A DNA stretch of 64,000 nucleotides from Cyanidioschyzon merolae (Eukaryota), in assembly GCA_000091205.1 (NCBI GenBank), contig AP006486.2; one strand, given 5' to 3'. Made by a program: the position numbers and the translations under genes. The stretch's first letter is position 1. The number at the start of each line of letters is the position of its first letter. Shown here piece after piece: positions 14,742 to 63,579 of the stretch. Below the pieces are notes generated by a model. It was given only the letters and a program-made list of their open reading frames with translations, did no database searches and was not told where the DNA came from.

Positions 14742-15848
14742 TTGCTTCCACTCATGGACGCGAAATGGAGTCCTGTGGACCTAAATCGCGGGCCTCAGAT
14801 GATGCGGCCTGTTCAAAGTGCATTTCTTTCAACCGCAACACCCACAGTGCCTGTGCGTTTGCTGCCGAACCTGACACTCGTGCAGCGCTCTCGCAGTCGC
14901 GCACTAGACGCACTCCATTTGATCACACTCAGAACCCGCTGCATCTGGCCTTGGAATATGTCTGCAGCGCCTGGTGCGAACGAAGGCGACCCAGCGACGA
15001 AGAGCAACTCCGCGAACCGTTTTAATTCTAAGCGAACAGAACCCAGTTTGTTAAACTTGTTCAGTTGGGGAGAGTTGGATGATTCACGTGCGGGAACCGA
15101 GAACGACGATGAAGATGATGGCTACGACGATATTTCATCCGACAGTGATGTGGATCCAGTTCTCGACCGTGGACGCGTGTTCGGTGCTTGGTTAGACAAC
15201 CAGGTTCTGAGACTGGATCGGATCCAGAGCGCTGCGATGCAAGCACCGGGCCAGACGCTACAAGAGCGAGCCGAGCGGGCTTTCGCGCGAGGCGTACAAG
15301 CTCTAACTGACGGTCACTATGCCACAGCGAGCGATGCCATCTTCCAGGCATCCGCATTGCCTGGACAGCAGACTCGACTTGGCGGCGAATATCTGCTCTG
15401 GCTTGCCCAGGCACTCGATGCTCAGGGCAAGAATGCGCGCGCTCAAGAGGTTCTCCGACGCCTGCAGTATCACAAAGACAGAGACGTGCGCCAGGTAGCT
15501 GAGAGTCTATTGTTTATCCTGCAGGCACCGCGGCTGCGTCTCGGCCCAGAGTCTTTCGTGAAAATCGACCTCGACGCCCTCTTGAATCAGAATCGGGCAC
15601 GCGATATTCCCGGGTGGAAGAAGAGGCAACGGAGATACCGGTTCGGAAGCGGCTCCTCTGCAGCGCTCGCTGGCACTGGCAAGCGCCGCAGAGAGCCGAC
15701 GAAATATTCCCTAGAATGGTTCACGTCGCAGGAGAGCGTCTCTGCGGAGGAACTTGAACGCGCGAACCAAGCATCACGCGCGGCTATGCTTGCATCGTCC
15801 GGTGTTATGCTGCTCATTCTGTTTATGCTACGTTTTCTCGGAAGGTAG
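14742..15848 (+). CDS. Hypothetical protein with a TPR-like helical repeat and a C-terminal transmembrane anchor
   Basis: 368-aa ORF; a later Met ('MSAAPGANEG') may be the true start. Acidic tract 'ENDDEDDGYDDISSDSD'; TPR-like 'AERAFARGVQALTDGHYATASDAIFQASAL...LLWLAQALDAQGKNARAQEVLRRL'; hydrophobic C-terminus 'VMLLILFMLRFLGR'. Confidence 0.4.
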   Translation: MLPLMDAKWSPVDLNRGPQMMRPVQSAFLSTATPTVPVRLLPNLTLVQRSRSRALDALHLITLRTRCIWPWNMSAAPGANEGDPATKSNSANRFNSKRTEPSLLNLFSWGELDDSRAGTENDDEDDGYDDISSDSDVDPVLDRGRVFGAWLDNQVLRLDRIQSAAMQAPGQTLQERAERAFARGVQALTDGHYATASDAIFQASALPGQQTRLGGEYLLWLAQALDAQGKNARAQEVLRRLQYHKDRDVRQVAESLLFILQAPRLRLGPESFVKIDLDALLNQNRARDIPGWKKRQRRYRFGSGSSAALAGTGKRRREPTKYSLEWFTSQESVSAEELERANQASRAAMLASSGVMLLILFMLRFLGR

Positions 15849-16799: not shown

Positions 16800-19395
16800 C
16801 CTTTTACAAGAAAAAACGTTGCTGCCGCAAGTGGTATAGTAGTGGCGACAAACGCACCGTAGACAAGGAGTCTTCAGCCGACGTGCAGACGCATCTCAGT
16901 CTTTCTCGACCGGCCACCCACTACTTCTTCCAACATTTTTTCATATAGTTCGAGTTTGAGAGGTTGTCCAACAAAATTCTATCTCGTCCACTCTGGAAGT
17001 CTATTCTCCAGCACCGCACGTCTCCTTATATTGATAGCGGCATTAATGTCTCGGTTCACAAACTCCATCCGTTTCTTGCCATCACTGGATGTACTTAATA
17101 ATGCGAGTAGTCCACGAACTTTCGCTCTCCTTTCCATTTGCTCCTCCGTCAACGGTCCGTGCTTTGCTATTTCCTCAGGGCTCCGCTAATACTTTTCCAT
17201 CTCGACCCTCTGAAGTGTACACCCCAGTTCATGGTGTGTATACGATGTTCGGAAGTCATCTACGGGTATCGTAACGAAACGCCGTGCGCACTCCTTGCAC
17301 GTTTTTGTCGTTGGAGCTGGTGTAATGCCTTTTTTCGACGCCCAGCGCCCTGCTCCATACGCTACTACGAGCCTCTGACTTTCATTCTCCCTCAGGGCGC
17401 TCAACTGATTGAAAAAGTTCGAGAACGCCCGCTGCTTCCCACAATACAAATTCATACGCAAACGAGCCCACCGGGGCTTGGTGGATTCTTTCCACAGGGC
17501 ATCCCAATGAGCAGCGCGAACTTCCATGAACTCCCGAAATGCTTCAAAGTCGGTTCCTCGGCTCGTCACCTCGCTCAAAGCTTCCAGGTGATCCCTCACT
17601 CCTGACTTCTAGGTCTCATTTTGTTTCCTCGCATTCATTATACCGGAATCCCGGTAGGATCTCGCTCTCGGGAACTTGAAAACTCGCATGTCTTTATGAC
17701 GTAAATTGTCGTCGACACTATCTTCCGCACGCTTGGGTACAGCGACGGTTATGATATTTGTGTTTCCGGGGTCCGCGCCAACGACAAAGCCGTTATCGTG
17801 CACTTTCTGTGTTGCACGATCCACCTCCTTCTTTTCTCGATGCTTCGCCGCGTCAACGACAAAGCCGTTATCGTGCACTTCGTGTGTCGCAGGATCCTCC
17901 TTCTTCGTACCTTCATCCTTCGCCACGGGCGGAGCTGGACGATCTGTCTTTAAGCGCCGATAGTGTACAGACATGGCTACTCCATCGTTTTCGATCATCC
18001 CAGTGAATACCTTTCGCTTGCTCACTTTCAGACGTTTGAAATCGACGAAATTCTTCTTCCAGTGCGTCTCCCGGCTTTCGCCGGAGAACTCCTCCCTGCT
18101 GACATTGAACTCCGGACTGATCTCCCTCATGATGCCGTAAAGGACGCCTGAATCGATAGTCACGAAATGTGACCTGATGTTGCACATTGGAACCACGTTG
18201 AAGCGCTTCCCCATTAGGAAAGCCTTCCGCCTCTCCCACTCTTCATTTGTCTCCTCATTCAGCTTCATTTCCGCCTTGCGTTCCAGCTCTCCGTCCAGCA
18301 ACACGAAATAGCGCAGGGCGAGGCGATAGTATCTTTCCTTATCTTTTTTCGACTCTGATAGCTTGTCTGTTGGACTCAGCAGCCCCAGTACCGCACGATG
18401 CTCTTCTACAACCGCACGGATGACAGAAGCTTCATTCGTGCTCTCGTTTGACGCCTTCTCTCCGACGAATTCGATCTCCTGTTCATGCTTGCGATCGTTC
18501 GTGACGCCATTGGTAATCGCCCATTTTCCTTTGCGAGCGATGCCAGGGTACAGCGCAAACACGGCGCGTATCATGAAGCGTTCGAGGTTCATAGTAAAAT
18601 GGTTCTTCAGGTTCCTGATGTACTTCATCGCTCCGTATGTGTAAATGCACCAGTCAATTTTGTATCGAGTACCGTCGAAGCTCTAAAAGGGATGTTTTTC
18701 GTGGAGGGCATGCACTAGCACATTTTCCCTCGGCGCTTCCGCTGTACCAAGCATCAGGTGTCGAATAAAGGTCTTATCGAGAAACCCGTCCGGAATCCCG
18801 ACCGTTTCCATCTGCGCCACGTCGCGATACATCTCCCTCGCCATATGCATCAGTCCTGAAGACGCCTTGACAATACTCTTGGAGTATGACGCAACACTGT
18901 TTTCGATAGCGTCTCGCAGCTTTTCCCTGTACGGATCCTTGATATTTTTAAGAAGACAGACTTTCACCACCTTCTTGTCGCACAGTCGTCTTTCGTGCCG
19001 CCTTCGACGCAGAGCGTCCCACTTTCAGTCCTTCTTCTCTTCCTTTTCTTCTGGACTTGGCACTGTTTTTCTGTTTTTTCTGGCAGCCCGCGACACTGGG
19101 CCTCCAGGATCATCGACTTGCTTTTCATAACTTCCTTTTTTTTGTTTTTTTTTGGAAAACAACGCTCCCTCCAACGCCTCTGATATAAACAGCGAGGAAA
19201 ACTTGAATAAACCAAACTGAGGGTTGAAATATAACTGAACTGAAAAGTACACTCTGCTATGACTTTAACGCAAATGCAACTTGTACTTGAGAGCAACACG
19301 CTCAAGATCGCGATCCCGTTTCCCTTCAACGACGACATGCGCGTCGTATCTCATGCCTGCCAGATATGGAGGTGCGCGTATCGACCGCGATGCCC
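16800..19395 (-). mobile_element. TnpB/Fanzor-like (IS605-OrfB-type, OMEGA nuclease) element, copy 1
   Basis: Minus-strand ORF fragments encode a Lys-rich NLS-like N-terminus (KKKQKKG...RKNRK), RuvC-I '[16 protein letters not shown]' (Asp near 17770), the zinc finger 'CKECARRF...SYTHHELGC', and RuvC-III 'RDINAAINI' (after the in-frame TAG at 17186-17188). About 180 bp of conserved 3' UTR reaches a sharp homology boundary near 16803 shared with three other loci. A subterminal palindrome 'cgacgacatgcgcgtcgt' lies at the 5' end (about 19335-19352). Confidence 0.7.
16980..19252 (-). pseudogene. Fanzor/TnpB-like nuclease gene, disrupted (frameshifts plus in-frame TAG) or intron-containing
   Basis: The coding potential is split over ORFs 19025..19252, 18683..18970, 17609..18628 and 17186..17599, then continues after the TAG to the stop at 16980-16982. 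The frame order differs from copy 3, so at least one copy is frameshifted. Confidence 0.55.
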
Positions 19396-19399
19396 CCTG

Positions 19400-20560
19400 G
19401 CACTGTATGGGCCGAGGGGCCCACCATGCGCACCCGGTTCAGTCGGATATCCATGCAGACCCCAACGCACCGCAAGAACACTTGGATGAAATCGATGCAG
19501 ATTTGGCTGAAGCGACGGTTATGCGAAAACACGCTCGAATCGTTCCCCAGAAATGTAGAAGGCTCCTACCGCCTCAAGCGAACTGTTCGAACAACCATAT
19601 GGGAACGTAGACACGGAACCAGTCGCGCCAGTAACGCCCGCCTTGACTCTATACCGGAACTACAACCTAGCATACACATGCGAGTACTGGTGGGAGGCGC
19701 TGGAGTTCCCGGGACTTGCTCGCGGTATCCAGTGGCTCGCCAAAATCCGCGTTGGTGGTTGCTGACTACCAGCACCTGCGCTAAACCATATAGGAACACT
19801 GGAATCGCAGTGGGAATCACACTGTCCCTGCTGTGGAAACGATAAACCCGAGACGCTGACATATTTAGGCTTACAGTGCGCGCGCTGGAAGCAGGAGCGC
19901 AGCGAGCTCCTTGAAGGACGGCATCAGCCGGGTATCACCGTGATAGTCGAAGGCCGGACACTCACTTTGAGTGCAGCACTGGCAACTGATGGTCCGCTAA
20001 CGGAGCCTCAGCGCTCATTCGTGGCCAACAGACTCACGTGCTACCTTCCAAGCGGAAGGTCTAGCGAATCGGACGCGCACACGGGTTTAGTATGCTTTCT
20101 GCGCCTATCCACTGTGGTGAGCGTCAAGCACAAACCCGCATTGCCAACCGACAACAACGCGTTCCATGCATGATCACGAAGGAGAGAGACGACTCCCAGA
20201 ATATATCTTAACGGCCAAGTGTCTCCAGCGTGTCGTGCCGCGAAGGCAAGCTTGCATCCGCAGACCGTCCGAGCACAAACTGACGACGAGACCCGATTCT
20301 ACGTCGGGTGAAGCACCCCTCGAGCCGACGCCCTCTGTGGTATGGAAAAGCCGTTCTAGCTCGATAAACTCTCTGCCCCAGCGGTTCAAGCGCAAAGGCG
20401 GATATGGAACGGCAGGTATTAGGTACCCACGACAGGACGTATGAGACGATCAGTATCTCCAAGAAGAAGTATAGGTAATGTAACTTGGAGGGAGGGGGCT
20501 TTATGGATATATTACCGCGCGCTGAAGTAAAACGCAAAACAAAAGAGAACGAAAAGAAAA
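19400..20560 (+). mobile_element. 5'-truncated non-LTR retrotransposon (LINE) remnant with a CCHC tail and A-rich 3' end
   Basis: Frame-2 translation around 19820-20173 gives 'HCPCCGNDKPETLTYLGLQCARWKQERSELLEG', the C..C...ET..[HY]L..C..W..ER zinc knuckle typical of LINE ORF2 C-termini. The 3' roughly 270 bp (20290-20560) is homologous to the 3' part of the SINE-like family and ends in 'aaaacgcaaaacaaaagagaacgaaaagaaaaag'. Confidence 0.35.
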
Positions 20561-30290: not shown

Positions 30291-31657
30291 TGTCGTATGT
30301 CGGGGCTGTATACACGAGATCTGTTCATGACTGCAGATAAAGCGCGGTTTATGGCTCGCTATGCGATTACGTTCCCGTATCCGGAAGCGTTTGGCGAAAG
30401 CCCCGTTCGAACTTCGCTAACAGCGCAGGATGCCCATGACTTGTGTTTGCGGAGAACTCGTTCGTTCTGTCTGTCTCCGCAAGTCTCCCGGCAGATGCAT
30501 ACGAACATGGATTCTTGGCCGCTGCACCATATGGAATTTCCCGACGAATGCACCATCTGATGTAGAGCTCTTCTCGGATCGAGTTTCGCGAACGAGTCGC
30601 TCCACGACGTCCCAGACAGCTTTGTACGACTAGAAGAGTGTTGGAGCATCTTGCAGTCCAGAGAGATGTTCCCGTATCATGACCAAGCAACACGGCGCCC
30701 TCATGGAGCAAGTCGAAGTGCTCACCTCTAGCGCACGCTCTCCTGTGCGCCCCCTGGTACTTGCAACGCTCGTTCGCTCGAGTCCAGCGATGGATGCTGC
30801 TGTCTCACATGTACCTCACAAGCGAATCTCCGCTGCCTTGTCTGGGCGTCTCGAATGCGATGCTCGACGCTTTAGCGCCGAATCGTAGGTGCCAGTCGGG
30901 CACCGCCCGGTAATCCGCTCGGACTATGCGTTATGCGTCTCGTCAATCTAAACGAGGACCATTGCAATACGCTTGGAACTGCTGCACGGGTCAAGTGATG
31001 TGCCACGGTCAGCGCCGACCTGGGACTCGCTCCAAGCCACTTGTCCGTGTTGCATCGATCAGCGCTCATGCCGTGCACACGATGCTACCCCGAATTCCTA
31101 TTACACGCTTCATTTGGACGACCAGTGAGCATCCAAACAGCCGCTCACTTCAGGCTCTGGTGAATCCTCCGTACAAGGGGCGCTTGCACGACGATTTCTT
31201 TTCGCACTGGAAGAGCGGTCGGCCTCGTGACCCTGTTCGCTCGTTAGTCGACCAGTTGCTCAGGACCAGCACCCATCAGATGTCAACAAGACGTCACCTT
31301 CAGGGAATACCAAGCCCGTAGACCAACACATTCTGCAGGGAGTACCGAGCGCAGAGTATTTCTGATTAAAGCTTGCCTTACAAATGCCCAATGCATAGCT
31401 TCGTTGTATGAGGACACCAGCTTCTGCAAGGCGTGCTCCAGTCAGAAAGATTCTGCTTTGGGTACGCCATACACAAAAGCCCACTGCATAGCTTCATCCT
31501 ACAAGAAGGGCTGTCACGACGGCCTTGCGTCTGTTCTGGCAGCAGCGTCGGGTGCGCAACGTTGCGTCGTGGTGCGGTAGGGCCGCAAAGAACAGCAACG
31601 AAGGCTGTGCTTGGGGGGTTTTTTATCCCGGCAAAGAGCTCTTTTCGAGATTGGAAT

Positions 31658-33004
31658 ATGGCCTCTCCTCCAGTGACTGACTGGGCTGAGGATGAGGTGG
31701 AAGGGTTCGGAAGAAGCTATGAGGAAAGGCGAGGTCTATGGATGGGCGTTGGTGCGAAGTCACGTGGCGAGACCGTTGCTGGGCGTTCGGGCGTCGCTAC
31801 AGACGTTCATCTGGCACCGGAGCGCTCGTCCCAGTCTCATGGGGAGCACGCTTCTGTCCATGCCGCTGAAAGCACTGAGATCAAGCATAGCACTGTTCGT
31901 TCCACGCTTCCAGGATCTGCAAAAGTGGCAAGCGCACGTAAGGATCCCGGCAGCGCGCACCAGAGGGAGGGAAGAGCTGCGTCTTCCTGCCCACAGGAGG
32001 GCAGGAAGACGCGCTCGCCTGCACGGACGGGTATGCGGCAAGGTCTCGACGAAGCCTTTGGGCGTATATCCGTGCGCGCGGAATCACTGAATCCTCAACC
32101 CGCCGCAACAAAGAATGAAACAACAAACGGCGCACAGCAGGGAGCGCCTCCCGAGCCTGACGTCACGGAAGTGGATGCCTTGAATGCCCGCATCGTGAAG
32201 AATGCTCGAGACGAGGCCGAAGGGACCGAGCAGCTTCTGCGTGAAGACAGGGAGCGAGAGACGCGCTCGAGGCGTTTGTTTCCCACCGAGCCTCCCTACA
32301 GAGCGTACGTTGGTCACGTACCCGCTGGGGTCCAGGAGGATCAGATCCGACAACTGTTCCATGGTTGCCAAATCAGTCGTATCCGATTTCTGCGTCGAGC
32401 GCCTCTGGCACCGGAAAGCGGTAGCAAGGACCCAGGTGGAAACGCATCAGAGCTGGACTCGGGCACAAGCACGAAACACACAGTCGTCCGCGCTGCATTT
32501 GTGGATTTTGCAAACGCGGAATCCCTTTCCGATGCGCTGAAACGTCACGGCACCCTAATCGACGAATGTGCAGTTGTTGTGGACATTGCGCAATACGCCG
32601 GGAACCCAGCAACAGCGGATGCTTCTGGCTCAACGCGCACTGCACACAGAGGGCGGCATTCGTATCGAACACCCTCAGCAGCGCCTTCGGAACGTGTGGA
32701 CTCGCGGTTTGCAGGCCAGCACCGACGGGGAAACGCGCCCACCATACCTTTGAAAGGCGCAGCACTTGGGCATCATGTGAACGGCACTGGACGCACCGGA
32801 GCCAGCGCCCAAGGATCGCGGAGAGCTCGGGCCTCGCGTCAGGGATGGGTGCACGTAACAGACGGTCTCCGCCCGCAGATACTCAGAGAGCAGGACGGGA
32901 AGGCTTCTGCAGCACCTGACAAATCCAGTGGGTCCATATTGGCCCGGAACGACTTTGCAGTGCTGGCCTCGCTTGATTCGAGTTTGTCTGACGACGATGA
33001 ATGA
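31658..33004 (+). CDS. RRM-containing protein, eIF4B/eIF4H-like
   Basis: The ORF spans 31433..33004; the probable start is at 31658 ('MASPPVTDWAEDE', the W-[AS]-D-E N-terminal motif of eIF4B). RRM 'YRAYVGHVPAGVQEDQIRQLFHGCQISRIRFLRR...VRAAFVDFANAESLSDALKRHGTLIDECAVVVDIAQ' is collinear with the eIF4B/4H RRM (Y.AfvGNLP....e.i..fF.gl.IsaVRL.R....AfVeF...esl..AL). Arg/Asp/Glu-rich (DRERE) region downstream. Confidence 0.55.
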   Translation: MASPPVTDWAEDEVEGFGRSYEERRGLWMGVGAKSRGETVAGRSGVATDVHLAPERSSQSHGEHASVHAAESTEIKHSTVRSTLPGSAKVASARKDPGSAHQREGRAASSCPQEGRKTRSPARTGMRQGLDEAFGRISVRAESLNPQPAATKNETTNGAQQGAPPEPDVTEVDALNARIVKNARDEAEGTEQLLREDRERETRSRRLFPTEPPYRAYVGHVPAGVQEDQIRQLFHGCQISRIRFLRRAPLAPESGSKDPGGNASELDSGTSTKHTVVRAAFVDFANAESLSDALKRHGTLIDECAVVVDIAQYAGNPATADASGSTRTAHRGRHSYRTPSAAPSERVDSRFAGQHRRGNAPTIPLKGAALGHHVNGTGRTGASAQGSRRARASRQGWVHVTDGLRPQILREQDGKASAAPDKSSGSILARNDFAVLASLDSSLSDDDE

Positions 33005-39067: not shown

Positions 39068-41863
39068 TTGCGGGGTGGGTACGAAAACGGACGCCACACG
39101 AGCAACGTGGACGGATCAATCACTAGCATGCCATTCGAACGGAAACATCGCACAGCATCATTTCAGGATCTGGCGGTGGGCGTTGTCTCACCGCCGGAAA
39201 TGCGGCCGCAGCCGCTGGCTGTGAGTGGATCCACTACTCCCGTCGGAGTCGAGAGTCTGAGCAAAGTCTTGGGAACGATCGAGCTGAGTCCGGAGGAGGA
39301 GGAACGTCGCCGGCAGCTGCTCTGGTCGCTTATGTCATCGTACCTGGCACGCGACGTTTCATCCATTCAGAAGTACATCGTGAACCATCTGGAGTATTCA
39401 CTGGCGCGGACCAGGTACAACTTCGATCGCTCTGGTGCGTACTACGCGACGGCGCTTTCCGTGAGGGATCGCCTGATCGAAGCATGGAATGATACACAGC
39501 AGTATTTTACGGAGAAAGATTGTCGTCGCATGTACTACTTATCTTTGGAGTTTCTCATGGGTCGTTTCCTTGACAATGCGCTGATCAACCTGGGACTTCG
39601 AGAGCAGTACAGGGAGGCGCTCATCGAGCTTGGCTTTGACCTGGACGAGGTGGAAGCCGAGGAGCGAGAGCCAGGACTCGGTAACGGTGGCCTCGGAAGG
39701 CTCGCCGCCTGTTTCCTTGACTCGGTGGCAACGCTAAACTACCCAGGCTGGGGCTACGGTATTCGTTATCGCTACGGCATGTTCGAGCAGCGGATCAAGA
39801 ACGGGTATCAAATTGAGTTGCCAGACTTTTGGTTGACGCGCGGTAATCCCTTCGAGATTGAGCGCCTCGATGTGACCTATCCCGTGTATTTTGGAGGCAG
39901 CGTGAGTCAGTTCACTGACAATAAGGGAAACTTGCGCTTCAAATGGGAGCCAGCCGAGGCCGTGTTGGCGGTGGCATTCGATGTTCCTGTGCCCGGGTAT
40001 GATACATACAATTGCATCAATCTGCGCTTGTGGGACAGTAAGCCTGCGCGTGAGTTCGATCTTAGCTCTTTCAACGTTGGCGACTATTATAAGATTCTTG
40101 AAATGCGGCAGACGAGTGAGACGCTCTCCGCCGTCCTGTACCCGAACGATAGCACTGAAGCAGGCAAGGAGCTGCGCCTCAAGCAACAGTATTTCTTCGT
40201 TTCGGCGACGCTGCAGGACATCATTCGGAGGTTCCTGAAGAAGGACCGACCACTCACGCAACTTGCCGAAAAAGTGTGCATTCAGCTGAACGACACGCAT
40301 CCGACGATCGGGATTGTTGAAATGATGCGCCTTCTCCTGGACGAGTACGCATTGGGCTGGACGGATGCGTGGAAAACCGTCAAAGCGGTGTTCTCGTACA
40401 CGAATCACACGGTGCTGCCGGAGGCCTTGGAAAAGTGGCCTGTGCCACTCATGGAACGGCTCTTGCCTCGCCACATGCAGCTCATCTTCGAAATCAACTT
40501 TCGTCATCTCCAGGAGTATGCTCGTCTAAGCAACAACGATGGCCATCTGTTGGAGCGAGTGAGCATCATCGAGGAGGGTTTTCCAAAAATGGTGCGCATG
40601 GCCCAGCTGGCCGTCGTTGGCTCACATACTGTCAATGGTGTCGCGGAAATACACTCGGAACTCGTGCGAACCCGTCTCTTCCCTGATTTTAACCGCTTCG
40701 AGCCGAAAAAGTTTGTGAACATCACAAACGGTGTGACCCCTCGACGCTGGATACTGGAAGCAAATCCCGCCTTGAGTGCGGTGTTTTCCCGCTGGACGGA
40801 GAGCGATGAATGGATTTTGGATTTGAACCAGATCCGCCAGTTGGAACAGTACGCCGAGAACCCTGACCTGCAACGGGAATTTTTCGAAGCCAAAAAGGAA
40901 AATAAGCGGCGTCTCGCTGAATACATTCGAGAAAAGAATGGCGTCCACGTGGATGTGAATGCCCTCTTCGACATCCAGGTCAAGCGAATTCACGAGTACA
41001 AGCGCCAGTTGTTGAATATTCTCGGTGTGATTGCGCGCTACAATTTGATCAAGTCGGGCAAGCGTGATCTCGTGCCGCGGGTCTTCATCTTCGGAGGCAA
41101 AGCAGCGGCTGGTTACGCACAAGCCAAGCGCATCATTCGTCTCATTAATGGTGTAGCAGACGTGGTCAACAATGATCCAGATGTTGGCGACCTCCTGAAA
41201 GTTGTATTTCTCGAAAACTACAGCGTGTCTCTTGCCGAGATCATCATTCCGGCGAGCGACATTAGCGAGCATATATCGACTGCCGGCATGGAGGCGTCAG
41301 GAACGAGCAACATGAAGTTTGTGATGAACGGCGGTCTCATCATCGGCACTATGGACGGAGCGAACATTGAAATCCGAGAAGAAATCGGGCCGGAGAACAT
41401 CTTTATTTTCGGTCTGTTGGCTCAAGAAGTTGACCAGGCGCGCAATGAACTCAAGTACCATGGCTGGAAATGTACCGATGGGCGCTTCCAGAACGCACTG
41501 GGTCAGCTCAGTCGCGGTATGTACTGCGGTCAAGACACTTTTCAGGAAATTGTACGAGCCCTCGATCCAGCCAACGACTACTACCTGATCAGTCGCGACT
41601 TTACCTCGTATATGGAAGCCCAGGATCGCGTCGACGCTGCCTATAGGGACCAGCGCTCGTGGCTGGCTAAGTGTATTGTGAGCACGGCTCGCATGGGTAA
41701 GTTCAGTTCTGATCGCAGTATCCATGAGTACGCGGAGCGCATTTGGCGCATTGAGCCATGTGCCTATACACCGTCCAGCATCACATACAAGGAACCAGTT
41801 GAGGGTGTCTCAGAGCCCACCGCAGACGGTACAGCGCCGAAGACGACGCTCCGAGGAACGTAA
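39068..41863 (+). CDS. Glycogen (alpha-1,4-glucan) phosphorylase, GT35
   Basis: 931-aa ORF; the true start may be an internal Met ('MPFERKHRTAS', about 39128). Diagnostic blocks 'EPGLGNGGLGRLAACFLDS', 'QLNDTHPTIGIVEMMR', 'TNHTVLPEALEKW', 'RVFIFGGKAAAGY' and the PLP-lysine region 'ISTAGMEASGTSNMKFVMNGGLIIGTMDGANIEI'. Stop is TAA. Confidence 0.9.
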   Translation: MRGGYENGRHTSNVDGSITSMPFERKHRTASFQDLAVGVVSPPEMRPQPLAVSGSTTPVGVESLSKVLGTIELSPEEEERRRQLLWSLMSSYLARDVSSIQKYIVNHLEYSLARTRYNFDRSGAYYATALSVRDRLIEAWNDTQQYFTEKDCRRMYYLSLEFLMGRFLDNALINLGLREQYREALIELGFDLDEVEAEEREPGLGNGGLGRLAACFLDSVATLNYPGWGYGIRYRYGMFEQRIKNGYQIELPDFWLTRGNPFEIERLDVTYPVYFGGSVSQFTDNKGNLRFKWEPAEAVLAVAFDVPVPGYDTYNCINLRLWDSKPAREFDLSSFNVGDYYKILEMRQTSETLSAVLYPNDSTEAGKELRLKQQYFFVSATLQDIIRRFLKKDRPLTQLAEKVCIQLNDTHPTIGIVEMMRLLLDEYALGWTDAWKTVKAVFSYTNHTVLPEALEKWPVPLMERLLPRHMQLIFEINFRHLQEYARLSNNDGHLLERVSIIEEGFPKMVRMAQLAVVGSHTVNGVAEIHSELVRTRLFPDFNRFEPKKFVNITNGVTPRRWILEANPALSAVFSRWTESDEWILDLNQIRQLEQYAENPDLQREFFEAKKENKRRLAEYIREKNGVHVDVNALFDIQVKRIHEYKRQLLNILGVIARYNLIKSGKRDLVPRVFIFGGKAAAGYAQAKRIIRLINGVADVVNNDPDVGDLLKVVFLENYSVSLAEIIIPASDISEHISTAGMEASGTSNMKFVMNGGLIIGTMDGANIEIREEIGPENIFIFGLLAQEVDQARNELKYHGWKCTDGRFQNALGQLSRGMYCGQDTFQEIVRALDPANDYYLISRDFTSYMEAQDRVDAAYRDQRSWLAKCIVSTARMGKFSSDRSIHEYAERIWRIEPCAYTPSSITYKEPVEGVSEPTADGTAPKTTLRGT

Positions 41864-47479: not shown

Positions 47480-48391
47480 TTAGAAGCAGATCATCACAGC
47501 AATGGACTCGAGAAAGAGCAACGTTGCCACAGACAAGCACGCCATTCCCTGTACAGCAAGATACGGATTCAAACTAGGACGGATAAATGCGTACTGGCAT
47601 CCTGGTACGTTTCTACCAACTGGTCCACACAGAGGCGGAGCGGTCCCATCGCTAGCTCGATAGAACCCGCTGCACTGATAAATGTGCTGGAACAGACACC
47701 GGAGTTCCGGTCTCGTATCCCGCCAAGCAGCAAGCTCAGCTGACTCATCGCCTGCAGCATACACGATGCATAGCGCCGCCAGTAGCGCTAGCAGAACTGC
47801 GCAGAGCAGCGAGACTGTTCGGTAGAGAATACGCCAAGCATACTGTCTCGGAACAAGCGCACTTACGATCGCAAGCAGCAGCGTCAAGCTCCCGAGAACC
47901 ACGTACACAACTCCTTGTCCCAGGAACGCCCGGTATAGTCCGTTCCAGGCCAGTCGATTGACGAGTGCGTCCCCACTCTGCACCTGATTGTAGATGCCGA
48001 GACCAAGCACGGCTCCGGATGCAAGCGCCAAGTACGCGAGGAAGGCCGCCCGGTGCGCCGAAAAGCGTCGTCGACTGTTGTGCTTTCTCGGAGTCGTTAC
48101 CGCAACACTTGCTCTTTGTTGTGGTTGTTCTCCCTCCTGGGAAGCAGCGTTACTTTGTAAACCAAGGAGACCTTCCAAGTCGGCAAACCCGTGCGGGTCT
48201 CCATCAAGAGGCGGTGCAGAGGCAGCCTCGAGCTTCATGGGAGACCTGCGCAAAGTCCCCGAATCGACTCGATTGAAGATAAAATTGGCGCTGAACGTTT
48301 CTTTTCTGTTCCAGCGATGCATCCACAGCGTGTGCAGTCGGTGCCTGAACGCGACGAGGAGCAGTACGAGCTCCGTAAAAGTGTGAAGCAA
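47480..48391 (-). CDS. Four-TM membrane protein with tetraspanin-like topology
   Basis: Four hydrophobic helices: 'FLAYLALASGAVLGLGIY', 'VVYVVLGSLTLLLAIVSALV', 'LLCAVLLALLAALCIVYAAG', 'MACLSVATLLFLESIAVMICF'. A Cys-containing loop 'CLFQHIYQCSGFYRAS...PLCGPVGRNVPGC' lies between TM3 and TM4. The probable start is an internal Met ('MKLEAAS', about 48235). CSG replaces the CCG motif. Confidence 0.35.
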   Translation of the reverse strand: MLHTFTELVLLLVAFRHRLHTLWMHRWNRKETFSANFIFNRVDSGTLRRSPMKLEAASAPPLDGDPHGFADLEGLLGLQSNAASQEGEQPQQRASVAVTTPRKHNSRRRFSAHRAAFLAYLALASGAVLGLGIYNQVQSGDALVNRLAWNGLYRAFLGQGVVYVVLGSLTLLLAIVSALVPRQYAWRILYRTVSLLCAVLLALLAALCIVYAAGDESAELAAWRDTRPELRCLFQHIYQCSGFYRASDGTAPPLCGPVGRNVPGCQYAFIRPSLNPYLAVQGMACLSVATLLFLESIAVMICF

Positions 48392-54950: not shown

Positions 54951-55527
54951 AGAGCACCGTAGGAAATTTCCTTATGCCTCCTCTACGGTATTCGTCGGAG
55001 AGCTGTGGTGAAGTCCATTTACGATCGTTGTGATTTCTGAGCGCAGCACTGCGGAACCCTTGGCACTACGTACTGGTGAAGTTGTTGTTCGAAATGGTCT
55101 GAGTTCTGCCTAGTTTCTGAAAAGGCATTGAGCGCTTGTGCTAGTTGCGCTGAACGCTAGACAATCTACGGGAGATTTAGCTCGGACTCTGGACAATTGA
55201 CGGGCGATCACTCGTGCCGCTACGCAAAAGAGGTTTTTGACTGGATACGCACACTTACGCGATCGATTCTAGCCGATGACGTGATCGGCAGCTTTCGCAC
55301 CGGAGACGACCTAACCCGAGAAAGTACAAGGCATGTTTGTCTCTGATCCGCTGTACCGGGGCTAAAGAGTAGTTCGCTCACCTGCTGTAAGTAGAGCACC
55401 GTTTCCGCTGGGTACCGAACATGACAGGTGCTTCACAGCTGGACATCGTCACCACTGCCAGCGTCCGCTTCCTTTGGTAATGCAGCGTTCGCCTGTAGCG
55501 CGCCGGCATCGTATGCTGCATCTTCGT

Positions 55528-56535
55528 ATGGGCCCGAAACAGTCGCAGATCGCCGTGGTCACTGGCGCGTCCTCTGGGGTCGGTCTGTATGCAGCTCACG
55601 CTCTGATCAACAAGGGCAACTGGCACATCGTCATGGCATGTCGTGACGTCGACCGGGCGGAGCGCGCAGCAAACAGCGTAAACCTTCCAAAGGACGCCTA
55701 TACAGTGCTGCATTGTGATCTGGCTGATTTCGCCTCTGTACTAAAGTTTGTGAAAGGGCTATCGAGTGTGGCGCGCGTCGATCACCTGGATGCCCTGATC
55801 TGCAATGCCGCAATCTGGCATCCGCGGGTCAAGAAACCGCGTTTCACGGTGGACGGCATCGAGAAAACCATGCAGGTATGCCATCTGAGCCATTTGCTTC
55901 TATGTCGGGAGCTGTTGCCGAAGCTGAAAATATCGCGCGGGCGCATTGTGTTTCTGACGACTCAGACACACTCGCCGGATTCGCTGCCGGGAAAGATCCC
56001 CCCGCAGGCTCGTCTCGGGGATTTATCTGGTCTAGCCGCGGGGCTTGATCCGCAGACGACGGACATGGTAGAAAGTGGCCCGTTTCAGCCCACAAAAGCT
56101 TTCAAAGACGCCAAAGCCGAGAACGTGTTGACAATGAAGGCGCTCAGTGATCGATACGGCCGCGACGGGGTGACCTCTGTGGCGATTTTCCCGGGATGTG
56201 TCGCCGAAAGCAACCTCTTCCGCGAAAAGCGTGGCTGGTTCCGGTACGTATTCTTCCCGATTCTTCAGAAGTATATCACTCGGCAATACGTTCCGAATGA
56301 TGAGGCCGGCCGCCGTGTAGCCGAAGTGGCGACCCAGGGACAGTTCTCGGACGCGGGCTCGTATTGTCAGTGGCGTGGCAAATATACGGAAGGTCGAGAG
56401 AAGACGAAATCGCAGGTTATTGAACCAACGTACGAAATCGACAAGGCAGATCAGCTATACGAACTGAGTCTTGATCTGATCGACCAGGCGTTACGGAGGC
56501 GAGGCCTCAAGTCGACTATCTTGGCCCCTGTCTAA
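55528..56535 (+). CDS. Short-chain dehydrogenase strongly resembling light-dependent protochlorophyllide oxidoreductase (LPOR-like), catalytic Tyr replaced by Phe
   Basis: The ORF spans 55474..56535; the likely start is 55528 ('MGPKQSQIAVVTGASSGVGLYAAHALINKGNWHIVMACRDVDRAERAA'). It is collinear with LPOR: 'ITGASSGLGLATAKAL..G.WHVIMACRD..KAERAA', 'LD.L.CNAA.Y.PTAKEP.FT..G.E..VG.NHLGHFLL', 'GDLRGLAGGL', 'YPGCIA.T.LFREH...F...FP.FQKYIT.GYVSE.EAG.R.A.VV'. The YKDSK catalytic motif reads 'AFKDAK' here (ttc at about 56113). Confidence 0.75.
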   Translation: MGPKQSQIAVVTGASSGVGLYAAHALINKGNWHIVMACRDVDRAERAANSVNLPKDAYTVLHCDLADFASVLKFVKGLSSVARVDHLDALICNAAIWHPRVKKPRFTVDGIEKTMQVCHLSHLLLCRELLPKLKISRGRIVFLTTQTHSPDSLPGKIPPQARLGDLSGLAAGLDPQTTDMVESGPFQPTKAFKDAKAENVLTMKALSDRYGRDGVTSVAIFPGCVAESNLFREKRGWFRYVFFPILQKYITRQYVPNDEAGRRVAEVATQGQFSDAGSYCQWRGKYTEGREKTKSQVIEPTYEIDKADQLYELSLDLIDQALRRRGLKSTILAPV

Positions 56536-59323: not shown

Positions 59324-62080
59324 ATGTTTCGAGCTCGCTCTCTGGCGCGTGGCCTGGGAGTTGCTGGTTGTCTATTGTTGGCGGCGACGTTTTCCGTGTC
59401 GGTTGTAGCTGCGTTGTCGCCTGTGAGTACGGTTAGCTGGACCTGGATAGGTGGAGAGACGGGCACAGGTAAGTATGGAAAGTATGGAACGTTGAACGAG
59501 ACGTCTCCAGAGAGTGTCCCTGGTGGACGTCAAAATCCAGCAGCCTGGGTCGGAAGTTCGAGCTTGGTATACTTGTTTGGCGGGTTTGGGAATGGAAACA
59601 CAACAGGGGGCTACCTCAACGATTTTTGGAGCTTCAACCTCACATCACTCGAGTGGATGTGGATAGGCGGCTCTTCAGACGTCAACAAACAAGGAGTATA
59701 TGGCACACTCGGCATAAGCAGCCCAGCCAATATACCTGGCAGTCGTTATGCAAGCGCATATTGGCAGGCGGACGAGCAGCACTTCTGGTTGTTTGGTGGT
59801 TTCGGCTCTGATGTGAACGGTAATGAGGGCGAACTGAACGATATGTGGCGGTACGATACTGAAACGGGAATCTGGACGTGGTTCAGTGGGAATGATACTA
59901 TTAACGCCAATCCAGTCTATGGACCGAAGGATATCTACAGTCAAATTTACAACCCCGGAGGCCGATATAGCGCGGCATTCTGGCTAGGCACGGACGGTCT
60001 GTTTTGGATTTTTGGTGGTGTGGGTATTGCGGGGGATTTTCTGTCAGATCTTTGGTCATTCAACCCTGTGACATTCGTATGGGCATACAGAGGCGGATCA
60101 CAACTTGTTAACCAGCCCGGTAACTATAGCGCACCTGGCGTGGCGAGCAACTCAAATGCCCCAGGTGCGCGCGGCGCCTCGTATACATGGACAGATTTTG
60201 AAGGAAATCTCTGGTTGTTCGGTGGCGCTGGCTACGGAAACAGCACAGCACGAGGACCAGGGGACTTGAATGATCTCTGGGTCTACAACATAAGCCAATC
60301 CGTATGGATTTTTATCACAGGGAATACCACTATTAGTAATCCAGGATCGTATGGAACTCTCGGTGCTTTCTCCCCAACCAGTTACCCAGGTGCAAGAGAC
60401 TCAGGCGTGAGTTTTGTGGATTCTTTTGGTAATCTACAGCTGTTTGGCGGTGAGGGATTCGCTAATACAAGCGAATCCTTTGGCAATTTGAACGATCTTT
60501 GGGTATTTGATATCACGCTTGGTCAGTGGGCGTGGATCAATGGCAGCCAAAGTGCGGATGCTCTTTCAGTATATGGAGTTTTGAACGAGTCCAGCTCGAG
60601 TGTTGTACCTGGCGGTCGCTATGGACCAGCTTTCTGGAATACAAGTGGGACCGATCCGATCCTATTTGGCGGATTTGGATACTCAAACACTAGCAGACCT
60701 GGCTATCTCAATGATGTTTTCGCACTGCGTGAAACGTTCTTTACGCCTACCTCTACGCCTACGCCAACATCAACGCCAACTGCTACATCGACCCCAACAT
60801 TCTCGGCAACCGCTTCATCTACGGCTACATCTACGATAACAGCAACCGTAACCTCGACGTTCACACTGACGCCAACGCCTACATCTACTCCGGTGTGCAC
60901 CAATGAGATCTGCGGTTCCCCGGGACAGTACACGAACCAGGACGCTTGCGAGCAAGTCGGATGCTGCTTCAACGCCCAGACGAACGCGTGCACCCTGAAG
61001 AGCGTCGCAGCGGCGTGCAGCGCTGTTCCAGTGACACAGCGCGTCCCCTGCGGCTGGAGCTACATCTATCCCGACGAGTGCACTGCGATACCGGGATGCT
61101 GCTGGCAGCCCACAGCGAACGGCATCCTCGCGCCCTGGTGCTACTACGACATCGACCATGCACCCCAGGCTTCTGTAGCGCTACAGGAGGTGCAGGCACC
61201 GGTTCCCGTCTGCCCGTCACCGGGAGCGCAGCGGCAGCCGTGCGGCAACGCGGGTATCAACCAGTTTACCTGCTATGAACAGGGCTGCTGCTACGACTCG
61301 CAGGCGCAGAACCAGTGGGTGCAGAACGGCAAGCAGCAGAGTGACTTTACGTCGAACCCGTACTGCTTCCAGCCCGAGAAGACGTGCGCGGTGGGTGAGT
61401 TTGAGCGCCAGCCGTGCACGAACGCGGTGAATCAGAACCAGCAGCTGACCAACAATAACATCAACAATAACCAGTTTGTGCGTCTGCTGAACACGCTGCT
61501 GTACGGAGAGCAGCACGGGACGCAGCGCACGAGCTACGCGCCGCAGCAGTGTCTGGAGGCTGGTTGCTGCCTGGGGCTCGGCAACGAGTGCTTCCAGCCG
61601 GTAACCGAGTACGTGTGCCAGACCTACGGGTATGTGTCGAACTCGCTGAGCGGCACGACCGGCAACGTATCGAACTCGAGCTATATTCCGTGTGGCCCGG
61701 AGTGCTGCAACGCCGAGACGCAGAACTGCACGTACATCCCGTTCAGCAACAACAATAACCAGCAGCAGCAGCAGCTGCAACTGCAGCAACAGCAGCAGCA
61801 ACAACAGGTGCTGCTGCCGTCGTTCTGTGTGTGCAAGGACCCTACAAAGCAGTGCGGGACGTACCTGATCCCTTCGGATAACCTTGTGAACAAGATGCGT
61901 TGCTGCCGCGCTGACGAGGAGTGCATCAACAACCAGTGTGTCGTGATTAGTTCAACACCGACTCCGAGTCCCGTGGCTGCGACAGCGACACCCTCTGCGA
62001 CGGTGTCTGCGACAGCTTCTGCGGCGGTGTCTGCGAGTGCGTCAACATCGGTTTCGGGTTCAGCTTCAGTTTCTGCTTGA
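59324..62080 (+). CDS. Secreted mucin-like protein: signal peptide + Kelch-type beta-propeller + Thr/Pro linker + multiple trefoil(P-type)-like Cys modules + Ser/Thr/Ala-rich C-terminus
   Basis: N-terminal 'MFRARSLARGLGVAGCLLLAATFSVSVVA' (signal-peptide-like). Six to seven repeats of 'W.W[IF].G....N..YG' and 'GGR...A.W......[LW][LI]FGG' (Kelch/galactose-oxidase-type blades). 'TPTSTPTPTSTPTATSTPT...' linker at about 60740-60900. Modules such as 'CSAVPVTQRVPCGWSYIYPDECTAIPGCCWQP' and 'CPSPGAQRQPCGNAGINQFTCYEQGCCYD' follow the trefoil pattern C-x-R-x-C-G...C...GCC[WFY]. A poly-Q/N tract and a C-terminal 'SATVSATASAAVSASASTSVSGSASVSA' tract are also present. Confidence 0.8.
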   Translation: MFRARSLARGLGVAGCLLLAATFSVSVVAALSPVSTVSWTWIGGETGTGKYGKYGTLNETSPESVPGGRQNPAAWVGSSSLVYLFGGFGNGNTTGGYLNDFWSFNLTSLEWMWIGGSSDVNKQGVYGTLGISSPANIPGSRYASAYWQADEQHFWLFGGFGSDVNGNEGELNDMWRYDTETGIWTWFSGNDTINANPVYGPKDIYSQIYNPGGRYSAAFWLGTDGLFWIFGGVGIAGDFLSDLWSFNPVTFVWAYRGGSQLVNQPGNYSAPGVASNSNAPGARGASYTWTDFEGNLWLFGGAGYGNSTARGPGDLNDLWVYNISQSVWIFITGNTTISNPGSYGTLGAFSPTSYPGARDSGVSFVDSFGNLQLFGGEGFANTSESFGNLNDLWVFDITLGQWAWINGSQSADALSVYGVLNESSSSVVPGGRYGPAFWNTSGTDPILFGGFGYSNTSRPGYLNDVFALRETFFTPTSTPTPTSTPTATSTPTFSATASSTATSTITATVTSTFTLTPTPTSTPVCTNEICGSPGQYTNQDACEQVGCCFNAQTNACTLKSVAAACSAVPVTQRVPCGWSYIYPDECTAIPGCCWQPTANGILAPWCYYDIDHAPQASVALQEVQAPVPVCPSPGAQRQPCGNAGINQFTCYEQGCCYDSQAQNQWVQNGKQQSDFTSNPYCFQPEKTCAVGEFERQPCTNAVNQNQQLTNNNINNNQFVRLLNTLLYGEQHGTQRTSYAPQQCLEAGCCLGLGNECFQPVTEYVCQTYGYVSNSLSGTTGNVSNSSYIPCGPECCNAETQNCTYIPFSNNNNQQQQQLQLQQQQQQQQVLLPSFCVCKDPTKQCGTYLIPSDNLVNKMRCCRADEECINNQCVVISSTPTPSPVAATATPSATVSATASAAVSASASTSVSGSASVSA

Positions 62081-63579
62081 GTATGCGCGTTGACGTTTAC
62101 GTCGTTTAAGGTCTATATCATGTCTATGCTGATCCTCTGTTATGACAATGTTGCAGACATGTACACAAGATCGGTGAATACGAATGAATGAACGAACGAA
62201 CGAACGAATGAATGCGGCTACAGATGTGCGCGGAGAGCACTCTGAAATCCTGCCGAGGGGGCGTGATTCAGAGGCGATACACATGGAACGACGGGGCAGG
62301 AATTCTCTCTCGGAACCTAAAGGAATGATTACCTATGAGCACGAGCGCGCCTATGACTATCGCTTTTTCGGCCACGTCGCTGAGTTGCAAAACTTTGCCT
62401 TCGTTGCCCCGGAAACCCGGTGCACAGGTTGCGACTAGCGAGTTTTGTGCGACGACGCAAACGGATGTAAGCATTGTAGGATTGATGTACTAGCTCGCAT
62501 TCTGTCCACGACTAGTAGTTCCAGAGCAAGTGCGGTTCGATCCGTGCAACTGAACATTTCACCAGAATACGGTATCCCTAGGGTAAGCGTACATATCAAT
62601 GAATCCATTTCATCTGCAGCAGCGTCGCTGAGTAAGCAAGTCGCAGAGTTACCAGCATCAGAGCGCATGTACAGCTCTAGCATCGAAAGCGCATATTGCC
62701 TGCTCCAAATGCGGAAGGGTCGTCTCAGAAGTTCTCAGACTCTTGCCTGCTGTCTGTTGGACAAAACGTGTACAAAAACGACTGTAGCGCACTGTTGGGA
62801 TCCAGTCCCCGATTTGGGCTTGTTGTCGAGAAAATGACTCCAAGCAGAGGGCGCAAGTAAGCTATAAGACCATGGACATGTCGCAAGCGTGCTAAATCGT
62901 AGAGGCAAGATAGAGCGCACAGCGAGATCCAGAGGGCGAATCTAGCCAAAGTGAGAGTTACCGCAGCACGGCGAGCAGAGTTGAAGGCAACCTGAGCGCT
63001 TTCTTTCTGTAACCGTACCTATCGATTATGTGCAAGGTGGTTGCGAGATGCCCTATGATTGAATCTACTGCTGATGAATGGAGGCTTGTCCTCCGGCCAA
63101 GGGAGCAACCGAGATGCAGAATATGATGTATCGACTAAAGAAGGTCTCAAGCTTCACGATTGACACAGTCGCGGATTCTTTTATCATATGGACGCCATCG
63201 CAGCAATATCTGAACGGGGCGGCCACCGACTAATAGTGTAAAGGATTGAGGTGCTTTTCGCAGACATGATCTTAATAAGCGACGGCAACCTGGATGCTGA
63301 CCTGAACTAGCGAGACCCTGCAGTGCCGACCAGGATCGCTTTGAGTGTAGACGGAAGGCAACAATAGCCGGCGCGATCGGGGCTCTTGGTTGTTGACGGT
63401 GTTTTCGTTGGTTGACCCGGGTCGCATGTGTCTCAAGAGACGGCGTGCGTTGTGCTCTGGCACGCTTGCGAGCACCGGTGCGACGGATCTAAGATGCAAC
63501 CCTAGGCAGAAAGGGTACCAGAGGTGTCATGATGATAGCCGAATGATAGTACCAGCAGTGGACGGGCGGAACAGCAAAT

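Follow-up and report, generated by a model that had tools for sequence, protein, structure and literature searches.

Genes annotated as "trefoil factor" and "hedgehog" were reported at the chromosome termini of the red alga Cyanidioschyzon merolae by Nozaki et al. in 2007 (PMC1955436). Cho et al. in 2023 found kelch (K), trefoil (T) and hint (H) genes to be the most prevalent subtelomeric duplications of the Cyanidiales, present in 12 to 24 copies per genome and including K+T and K+H fusions joined via a Thr/Pro/Ala linker (PMC9812998). A 2025 transcriptome paper described nickel-induced "trefoil factor" genes that combine a P-type trefoil with a Kelch propeller of about 500 amino acids (aa). 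A Plant Cell paper of 2026 counted 15 trefoil factor (TFF)-like genes in Cz. merolae, 13 of which are expressed predominantly in walled diploids, with proteome support in Cyanidiococcus, and found the Kelch+Hint ("K+Hog") genes to be expressed mainly in wall-less haploids (PMC13353863). Here we describe a Kelch+Trefoil (K+T) gene in a 64,000-nucleotide stretch of DNA, called the window throughout, and resolve the domain structure and relationships of its product.

The gene is an uninterrupted, intronless open reading frame (ORF) of 918 aa, taken from the ORF list and its translation, and its product carries the signal peptide, Kelch domain, Thr/Ser/Pro-rich linker and trefoil modules by which K+T proteins are recognized. 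The closest named homolog, CCYA04G1438 of Cyanidiococcus yangmingshanensis, is likewise a Kelch+Trefoil protein and showed 68% identity over 95% coverage. A Kelch+Trefoil protein of Cyanidium caldarium, CDCA06G1732, named "P-type domain-containing protein" in UniRef, showed 44% identity over 92% coverage. Between genera, the propeller was 40 to 67% identical and the Cys-rich cassette 57 to 79% identical. Metagenome fragments 86 to 97% identical to the protein also exist. There is very little doubt that the gene belongs to the K+T, or trefoil-factor-like, multigene family of cyanidialean red algae. As a discovery this adds little: annotation of the family goes back to the C. merolae genome papers, and the K+T fusion has been on record since 2023; the domain combination that the first-pass annotation of this DNA had called unusual is real but already published. 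The family is thus known and its function still unassigned in the literature. What is added here is a six-bladed propeller, a cassette of six modules, among them a cryptic fourth trefoil and two novel Cys motifs, the loss of the TFF ligand pair, the occurrence of the cassette or of trefoils in other microbial eukaryotes and a fungus, and a bacterial affinity of the propeller.

The propeller consists of six repeats of 68 to 75 aa, with blades starting at aa 39, 111, 184, 252, 327, and 402, and contains six WxWxxG and six LNDxW motifs. Several Pfam Kelch models scored above their cutoffs (PF24681, 94 bits; Kelch_3 [PF13415], 62 bits; Kelch_4 [PF13418], 54 bits). An AlphaFold model of aa 30 to 476, built on an alignment of 42 homologs, reached a predicted local distance difference test score (pLDDT) of 95.9 and a predicted template modeling score (pTM) of 0.93, in keeping with the Kelch propeller proposed in the first-pass annotation. 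The best Foldseek matches in the PDB were six-bladed Kelch domains, namely, those of LZTR1, KLHDC2, KLHDC3, epithiospecifier protein (ESP), and Keap1, together with designed six-blade proteins, all with a probability of 1.0 and an identity of only 13 to 20%. The repeat count and the six-bladed structural neighbors agree on six blades, against the roughly seven first proposed.

Galactose oxidase, a radical copper oxidase of the AA5 type, has a seven-bladed propeller, a Tyr-Cys thioether cofactor, and Cu ligands. The window protein has no Cys between aa 17 and 524, so none lies in the propeller and the Tyr-Cys cofactor of galactose oxidase is absent. Together with the blade count, this led us to reject galactose oxidase as the identity of the propeller, and the initial label "galactose-oxidase-like" stands for the superfamily and not for the enzyme. 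A NanM/YjhT-type mutarotase was likewise rejected, with 21.2 bits against a cutoff of 45 for PF24996 and 21.5 bits against a cutoff of 256 for TIGR03547. Neither galactose oxidase nor NanM occurred among the top 50 Foldseek matches, and the structural neighbors were protein- or ligand-binding six-bladed Kelch domains. These results bear on the proposal that the protein is a secreted carbohydrate-active enzyme, with a catalytic propeller of the galactose oxidase or NanM type and the trefoil cassette as its carbohydrate-binding module. Cho et al. "identified as galactose oxidase" the K domain (PMC9812998), many bacterial relatives are labeled "N-acetylneuraminic acid mutarotase" by JGI, and trefoils do accompany catalytic domains in a Piromyces glycoside hydrolase family 31 (GH31) protein, with six trefoils and a CBM26 domain, and in a peroxidase described below (P0226). 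However, six blades instead of seven, the lack of Cys, the subthreshold NanM and YjhT scores, and the absence of both enzymes from the top structural matches make a catalytic propeller highly improbable. The propeller is presumably noncatalytic and would function as a ligand-binding head.

Algal orthologs aside, the organism-named relatives of the propeller among the 120 best matches were all bacterial, and the others were metagenome proteins without a name. The bacterial matches, from Holophagales, Chitinophagaceae, Flavihumibacter, Phycisphaerales, Fulvivirga, and Sumerlaeota, covered only the propeller at 33 to 41% identity, and many of these relatives carry the sorting domain of the Bacteroidota type IX secretion system (T9SS). 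A scan of prokaryotic genomes returned full-length propeller matches in Chitinophagaceae (40%), Verrucomicrobiota (38%), Eubacteriales (37%), and Ectothiorhodospiraceae (33%). Bacterial and algal propellers have in common a blade of about 72 aa with the consensus WTWxxG...GxYGTxG...NxPGxR...LFGGxG...LNDLW. Given that the nearest nonalgal relatives are bacterial and that eukaryotic Kelch domains are only 13 to 20% identical, a bacterial origin of the propeller by gene transfer is a reasonable hypothesis, with the caveat that consensus-like repeats inflate similarity and that the propeller of the Cyanidium ortholog is likewise only 40% identical.

The second half of the protein is dominated by a Cys-rich region of about 350 aa. 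The mature protein contains 36 Cys residues, an even number, all of which are kept in Cyanidiococcus and Cyanidium. Over the whole protein, the Pfam Trefoil model (PF00088; cutoff, 21 bits) matched three stretches with a score of 47.4 bits, and a phmmer search of the PDB returned TFF3 (6v1c, E = 4e-5), TFF1, and pancreatic spasmolytic polypeptide, the aligned region being aa 563 to 614. We divided the region into six modules, M1 to M6, and scanned them one at a time against Pfam, reporting matches down to E ≤ 10. The canonical trefoil spacing is approximately C-x9-10-C-x9-C-x4-CC-x10-C, accompanied by R..CG, GCC[FWY], and W-C-F motifs, and it was found in M2 and M3. The trefoil fold itself has three loops closed by 1-5, 2-4, and 3-6 disulfides. 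M2 alone scored 45.6 bits with PF00088 (E = 6e-12) and contains QRVPCG (the RxxCG motif), GCCW, and PWCY; M3 alone scored 30.7 bits (E = 2.8e-7) and contains QRQPCG, GCCY, and PYCF. M1 scored 17.9 bits, below the cutoff of 21, and its spacing of 4-11-4-0-7 deviates from that of a trefoil; its six Cys residues are all kept in 8 of 8 aligned relatives. M4, M5, and M6 matched no Pfam family in the same scan. PAN/apple, CBM1, and EGF were considered as module identities and dropped, no module giving a match to any of them at E ≤ 10; the outcome that the first-pass annotation had named as refuting the trefoil assignment did not arise.

The origin of the TFF-like genes has been called unclear, and TFFs have been said to be restricted to vertebrates outside the Cyanidiophyceae, with convergence suggested as an explanation (PMC13353863). 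We built a profile of M1 to M3 from seven algal sequences and used it in an exhaustive HMMER search of 1.84 billion representatives, which gave 129 matches at E ≤ 1e-3. Among 20 matches that were scanned, 18 carry PF00088 at 45 to 354 bits, and the other 2 (P0134 and P0172) were not assessed or negative. The profile retrieved multitrefoil animal proteins from the hydrozoan Clytia, the coral Oculina, the newt Lissotriton, and the pipefish Syngnathus, with E values from 1e-37 to 1e-17 and Pfam Trefoil scores of 214 to 354 bits. It also found a cluster with GH31 enzymes of the anaerobic fungus Piromyces sp. E2, the representative of which consists of six trefoils, a CBM26 domain, and a GH31 domain. 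Such reciprocal retrieval of accepted trefoil proteins indicates that the algal modules are homologous trefoil domains, and these matches show a predicted trefoil domain that is not confined to animals and Cyanidiales. At the level of the domain, the restriction of TFFs to vertebrates, apart from the Cyanidiophyceae, does not hold, because PF00088 domains are present in Clytia, in Oculina, in the Piromyces GH31 cluster, and in protist and metagenome proteins. One further match to the trefoil profile, P0134, is a 963-aa protein from a 283-kb ENA contig that aligned in 16 stretches (E = 4e-17); it has no Pfam match at E ≤ 1e-3 and only 4.8% Cys, eight members of its cluster lie on one contig, and it could be a divergent repeat family or a set of miscalled exons.

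Five further matches spanned the whole three-module profile in one stretch, with the modules in the same order as in the window protein. P0168 and P0187 contain M1 to M6 without a Kelch domain (T-only) and have N-terminal hydrophobic segments resembling signal peptides, and P0151 and P0231 contain M1 to M4. The fifth, P0226, is an MMETSP protist transcript (JGI 3300017266, locus 67-2289) in which N-terminal M1 to M4 are followed by a plant-type heme peroxidase (PF00141, 34.9 bits). We know of no description of a fusion between a trefoil cassette and a heme peroxidase. P0231 lies on metagenome contigs of 93 to 168 kb with 52% GC, among long intronless ORFs including Complex1_LYR, LdpA, and GH31. 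P0187 and P0151 come from the same SRA run, on contigs of 69% GC, and adjoin a cytosolic-type uL6 with best PDB matches to 4v3p and 4v7e, both wheat ribosome entries. On this sequence evidence, the sources of the five distant relatives are judged to be eukaryotic. A T-only copy is also present in Cyanidium (CDCA10G3079), where it is nonsubtelomeric. The occurrence of the cassette without Kelch, in CDCA10G3079, P0168, and P0187, and with a peroxidase, in P0226, argues that it is a self-contained unit. The distant relatives surfaced only in the exhaustive HMMER search; a word-indexed database queried with the Cys region or a cassette profile yielded nothing beyond nearly identical metagenome fragments and the T-only gene of Cyanidium.

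These relatives also clarified M4. In the window protein, its spacing is 9-44-4-0-6: an N/Q-rich insertion of 44 aa separates Cys2 from Cys3, and the third loop is shortened to 6 aa. M4 nevertheless aligns Cys for Cys with a canonical trefoil of P0168, P0187, P0151, and P0231, and in all five full-profile distant relatives this module is a canonical trefoil with loops of 9-9-4-20 and the signature CGYPGI...VPWCYY. The Cyanidiales as a group have an insertion of 15 to 45 aa and a truncated third loop at this position. The M4 of the window protein is therefore read as a degenerate trefoil invisible to Pfam. As judged from these alignments, the Cys region is one conserved six-module cassette, made of four trefoil-derived modules and two unclassified Cys modules. 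It is presumably disulfide bonded, and its 36 Cys residues would be enough for 18 disulfides.

Two side observations concern metagenome sequences related to the cassette. The T-only gene for P0231, at 17072-19750 of JGI 3300041539 contig Ga0453586_000028, lies 6 kb from a GH31 glycosidase gene at 10001-11236; the latter has no trefoil in its precomputed Pfam list, and the proximity may be coincidence. P0284, a 389-aa gene call on a 1.6-kb metagenome contig, matches 41% of the Cys cassette at 86% identity and has precomputed Pfam assignments of C2 and Ribosomal_L39; a chimera or a merger of frames in gene calling is more probable than a real fusion.

The sugar-binding site of the vertebrate trefoil factors is well defined. 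In TFF3 and TFF1, the contacts are made by Asp20/Asn14, just before Cys2, and by Trp47/Trp41, just before Cys6, and mutation of either abolishes mucin binding (PMC7221086). The corresponding residues before Cys2 and Cys6 in the window protein are Ile and Ala in M1, Pro and Trp in M2, Pro and Tyr in M3, and Pro and Glu in M4. The Asp/Asn-plus-Trp pair is thus incomplete in every trefoil-type module, and only M2 has retained the Trp that precedes Cys6. In the distant relatives, Asn or Asp together with Trp is found only in M4, the module that has decayed in the Cyanidiales. With no module carrying the full pair, a lectin site identical to that of the TFFs is not supported. These residues decide how seriously to take the idea that the modules form an acid-protection lectin of the TFF kind, binding terminal sugars of mucin-like surface glycans and cross-linking a protective layer against pH 0 to 4, with a domain convergent with the vertebrate TFFs (proposed in PMC13353863). 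The alga, an inhabitant of hot springs, does live in an acidic habitat, M2 and M3 are genuine trefoils by sequence, and the presence of several modules could make the protein multivalent, much as TFFs are divalent lectins that cross-link mucins, TFF1 and TFF2 working at low pH (PMC7221086). Nonetheless, the two ligand residues never occur together in any window module, and the sole module that keeps them in distant relatives is the one that degenerated in this lineage. The convergence component fares no better, as the Pfam E values (6e-12 and 3e-7), the reciprocal profile, and the trefoils of cnidarians, a fungus, and protists point to common ancestry. We regard such a lectin as unlikely; the cassette more probably binds another ligand or serves chiefly as a structural or tethering element. 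The expectation that a trefoil is a metazoan mucin-glycan binder does not transfer to this protein, in view of the trefoils of Piromyces GH31 enzymes and protists and of the missing ligand pair, and the description of the protein as an adhesin or glycan-binding protein has the standing of a hypothesis.

The remainder of the sequence is that of a secreted protein, as the first-pass annotation had it. The N-terminus, MFRARSLARGLGVAGCLLLAATFSVSVVA/A (the slash marks the predicted cleavage site), has a basic n-region, a VVA/A cleavage-type motif, and the most hydrophobic 19-mers of the protein (Kyte-Doolittle means of 2.1 to 2.3), consistent with the predicted signal peptide; a hydropathy scan found no other hydrophobic segment. 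The linker (aa 472 to 523, 52 aa) is 44% Thr, 17% Ser, and 15% Pro, agreeing with the mucin-type (TPTS)n linker originally described. It is encoded in part by imperfect 6-, 12-, and 18-nucleotide tandem repeats at 60742-60835 and is probably O-glycosylated. The propeller is enriched in N-glycosylation sequons: it has 13, where composition shuffles give 5.9 ± 2.1 (P = 0.003), and 12 of the 13 are kept in the Cyanidiococcus ortholog. The poly-Q/N and the Ser/Ala/Thr-rich tail noted at the outset were also recovered: N/Q tracts lie at aa 700 to 716 and 809 to 828, the latter differing in length between orthologs, and the tail (33% Ser, 28% Ala, and 16% Thr) includes a 12/24-nucleotide tandem repeat at 61985-62036. 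A glycosylphosphatidylinositol (GPI) or membrane anchor was considered for the C-terminus and set aside. The last 19 aa have a mean hydropathy of 0.84, compared with 2.3 for the signal peptide, and the tail is missing in the Cyanidium ortholog, so that it does not qualify as a GPI signal or as a membrane anchor. From the signal peptide, the sequon enrichment, and the Thr/Ser/Pro linker, a secreted extracellular glycoprotein is well supported.

The functional model that we put forward, with moderate confidence, is an extracellular wall or matrix glycoprotein in which the propeller is a binding head and the Cys cassette an acid-stable tether. The product would enter the secretory pathway, where the propeller would be heavily N-glycosylated and the Thr/Ser/Pro stalk probably O-glycosylated, and would finally lie beyond the plasma membrane, either soluble or associated with the wall, as a glycoprotein that has neither a membrane nor a GPI anchor. 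The six-bladed propeller, whose type is otherwise known from secreted proteins of bacteria, would serve as the ligand-binding head. The C-terminal cassette would form a compact array of domains resistant to acid and protease and would tether or cross-link the protein in the glycoprotein wall or matrix that surrounds the cells in the walled diploid stage. The Hint paralogs may tether the same head in another way, by autoprocessing at a conserved Cys-Phe-Pro junction; in the Cyanidiococcus paralog P0084, the same propeller is followed by a Hint module at the junction ...SGAK/CFPADA.

Several points weigh against this model or against its application to this copy. Cho et al. could assign no function to the K, T, and H genes (PMC9812998). 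The expression data are at the level of the family and not of this gene, and some members are haploid biased or nickel induced (PMC13353863; 2025 transcriptome paper). The missing TFF ligand pair makes a tether of the lectin type less plausible, and an AlphaFold model of the Cys region (aa 520 to 880, 8-sequence alignment) had a pLDDT of only 42 and was unusable for fold comparison. Finally, the exact protein had no match in a 15-billion-sequence collection, so the species assignment is by inference.

The family-level data are also compatible with a variable surface molecule, from a rapidly diversifying family, that would mediate cell-cell or cell-substrate recognition, for example between gametes or mating partners, in biofilm attachment, or in defense against viruses or bacteria, with the propeller as its variable face. 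The genes are subtelomeric, number 12 to 24 per genome, and occur in differing domain combinations (PMC9812998), and their expression is biased by stage, K+Hog mainly haploid and K+TFF mainly diploid (PMC13353863). The linker and N/Q tracts vary in length and are encoded by tandem repeats, and the propeller diverges more between genera (40 to 67% identity) than the cassette (57 to 79%). However, most Cyanidium copies are more than 80% identical (PMC9812998), unlike an antigenic-variation repertoire, and neither a partner nor a phenotype is known for the family. This possibility overlaps with the wall or matrix tether and is compatible with much of the same evidence; as a separate explanation, we consider it quite improbable. 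The wall or matrix glycoprotein is the better account, and its head, stalk, and tether can be tested in C. merolae, which is genetically tractable; the K+T genes are among the most amplified of cyanidialean genomes and are stage specific.

A broader and distinctly speculative proposal, which we think possible but doubtful as a whole, is that the T cassette of four trefoils and two novel Cys modules is ancient, predates the Kelch fusion, and is common to several lineages of microbial eukaryotes. The trefoil would then be neither an animal invention nor convergent in red algae. In the Cyanidiales, the cassette would have been joined to a bacterial propeller, giving one head on two stage-dependent tethers, the T cassette in walled diploids and Hint autoprocessing or lipidation in wall-less haploids. 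Other microbial eukaryotes have the cassette, and a fungus and cnidarians have trefoils, which speaks for homology and for a trefoil older than the metazoans. The bacterial affinity of the propeller makes it a candidate addition to the gene transfers known in these extremophiles. The features of the gene are collected in Table 1.

Table 1. Features of the Kelch+Trefoil gene and of its product, with positions in the window
Feature	Residues (aa)	Position	Strand	Basis
Kelch+Trefoil gene, complete, stop codon included		59324..62080	+	ORF list; full-length homologs in Cyanidiococcus and Cyanidium
Signal peptide, predicted cleavage after VVA	1-30	59324..59413	+	Basic n-region and hydropathy; equivalent N-terminus in orthologs
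Predicted six-bladed Kelch beta-propeller, 13 sequons, no Cys	39-472	59438..60739	+	Pfam, repeats, AlphaFold, Foldseek
Thr/Ser/Pro-rich mucin-type linker	473-523	60740..60892	+	Composition, tandem repeats
M1, short atypical trefoil-like module, C-x4-C-x11-C-x4-CC-x7-C	525-556	60896..60991	+	Only Pfam match Trefoil
M2, canonical trefoil (P-type), C-x10-C-x9-C-x5-CC-x12-C	565-606	61016..61141	+	PF00088; TFF3 6v1c alignment
M3, trefoil with enlarged third loop, C-x9-C-x9-C-x4-CC-x24-C	630-681	61211..61366	+	PF00088
M4, putative degenerate trefoil	688-756	61385..61591	+	Cys-for-Cys alignment to relatives
M5, unclassified five-Cys motif, C...CGxECCxxxTQxC	765-802	61616..61729	+	Kept in Cyanidiococcus, Cyanidium, P0168, and P0187
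Asn4-Gln/Leu16 low-complexity tract	809-828	61748..61807	+	Partly a (CAG)n array (Tandem Repeats Finder [TRF], 61760-61800)
M6, unclassified seven-Cys motif, CxCKx6CGx15CCx5Cx4C	835-872	61826..61939	+	Kept in Cyanidiococcus, Cyanidium, P0168, and P0187
Ser/Ala/Thr/Val-rich C-terminal tail	876-918	61949..62077	+	Composition, hydropathy

The window has a GC content of about 54% and contains long intronless ORFs for typical eukaryotic nuclear proteins, namely, Nop14, a GATA factor, a Myb factor, glycogen phosphorylase, and an amidohydrolase. Along its entire length, a 353-aa ORF at 55474-56535 (+), 2.8 kb upstream of the K+T gene, matches light-dependent protochlorophyllide reductase; its score of 300.7 bits with TIGR01289 falls slightly short of 331, the bacterial equivalog cutoff. 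The ends of C. merolae chromosomes have been drawn with "T" (trefoil factor) and "P" (protochlorophyllide oxidoreductase) genes together (PMC1955436). From this published T-P pair and the neighbor found here, we infer that the window is a chromosome-end region of C. merolae or a close relative. The K+T gene lies 1.9 kb from the 3' end of the window, and a search of the window for the telomere repeat (two copies of AATGGGGGG) found none. A tblastn search of the window with the K+T protein revealed no paralog, and the remaining 1.9 kb contain no convincing ORF with a family match. A microsatellite, (ACGA)/(ACGAATGAACGA)n, lies at 62180-62212, about 100 nucleotides past the K+T stop codon. Elsewhere in the window, the 931-aa ORF at 39068-41863 (+) is an alpha-glucan (glycogen/starch) phosphorylase (PF00343, 1,039 bits); it begins at a TTG in the ORF list, and the real ATG start is probably further downstream. 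Four other long ORFs (14742-15848, 17609-18628, 31433-33004, and 47480-48391; 303 to 523 aa) matched no Pfam family at E ≤ 1e-3 and may be lineage-specific genes or noncoding ORFs.

The known systems that come closest to the window protein differ from it in instructive ways. The secreted bacterial Kelch-repeat proteins have the same blade of about 72 aa and are 33 to 41% identical across all six blades, but they usually contain two propellers together with bacterial sorting domains or Ig-like domains, and trefoil and Hint modules are absent from them. The animal TFF1, TFF2, and TFF3 have in common with M2 and M3 the six-Cys spacing and the R-x-x-C-G, GCC[WFY], and [WY]-C-[FY] motifs, with significant sequence similarity. 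TFFs, however, are proteins of 7 to 12 kDa with one or two domains, acting as lectins for N-acetylglucosamine-alpha-1,4-galactose (GlcNAc-alpha-1,4-Gal) through the Asp/Asn and Trp residues, whereas here the modules stand behind a propeller in a protein of 918 aa. The animal GH31 alpha-glucosidases GAA, MGAM, and SI carry trefoil domains. In the GH31 alpha-glucosidases of Piromyces sp. E2, trefoils are likewise accessory domains of a larger secreted carbohydrate-related protein, and this outside animals; these enzymes have a glycoside hydrolase domain, which the K+T protein lacks, its partner being a presumably noncatalytic Kelch propeller. The Kelch+Hint (K+Hog) proteins, such as CCYA03G1141 of Cyanidiococcus, have a paralogous propeller (55 to 57% identity) and the same Thr/Pro linker, but their C-terminal partner is a Hint autoprocessing module and not the Cys cassette. 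Closest of all is the K+T family of the Cyanidiales itself, which has the same end-to-end architecture with no essential difference, as expected of a member. Publications on the family list "kelch" and "trefoil" only, and the six blades, the six-module cassette, the degenerate M4, and the two nontrefoil Cys modules are resolved here.

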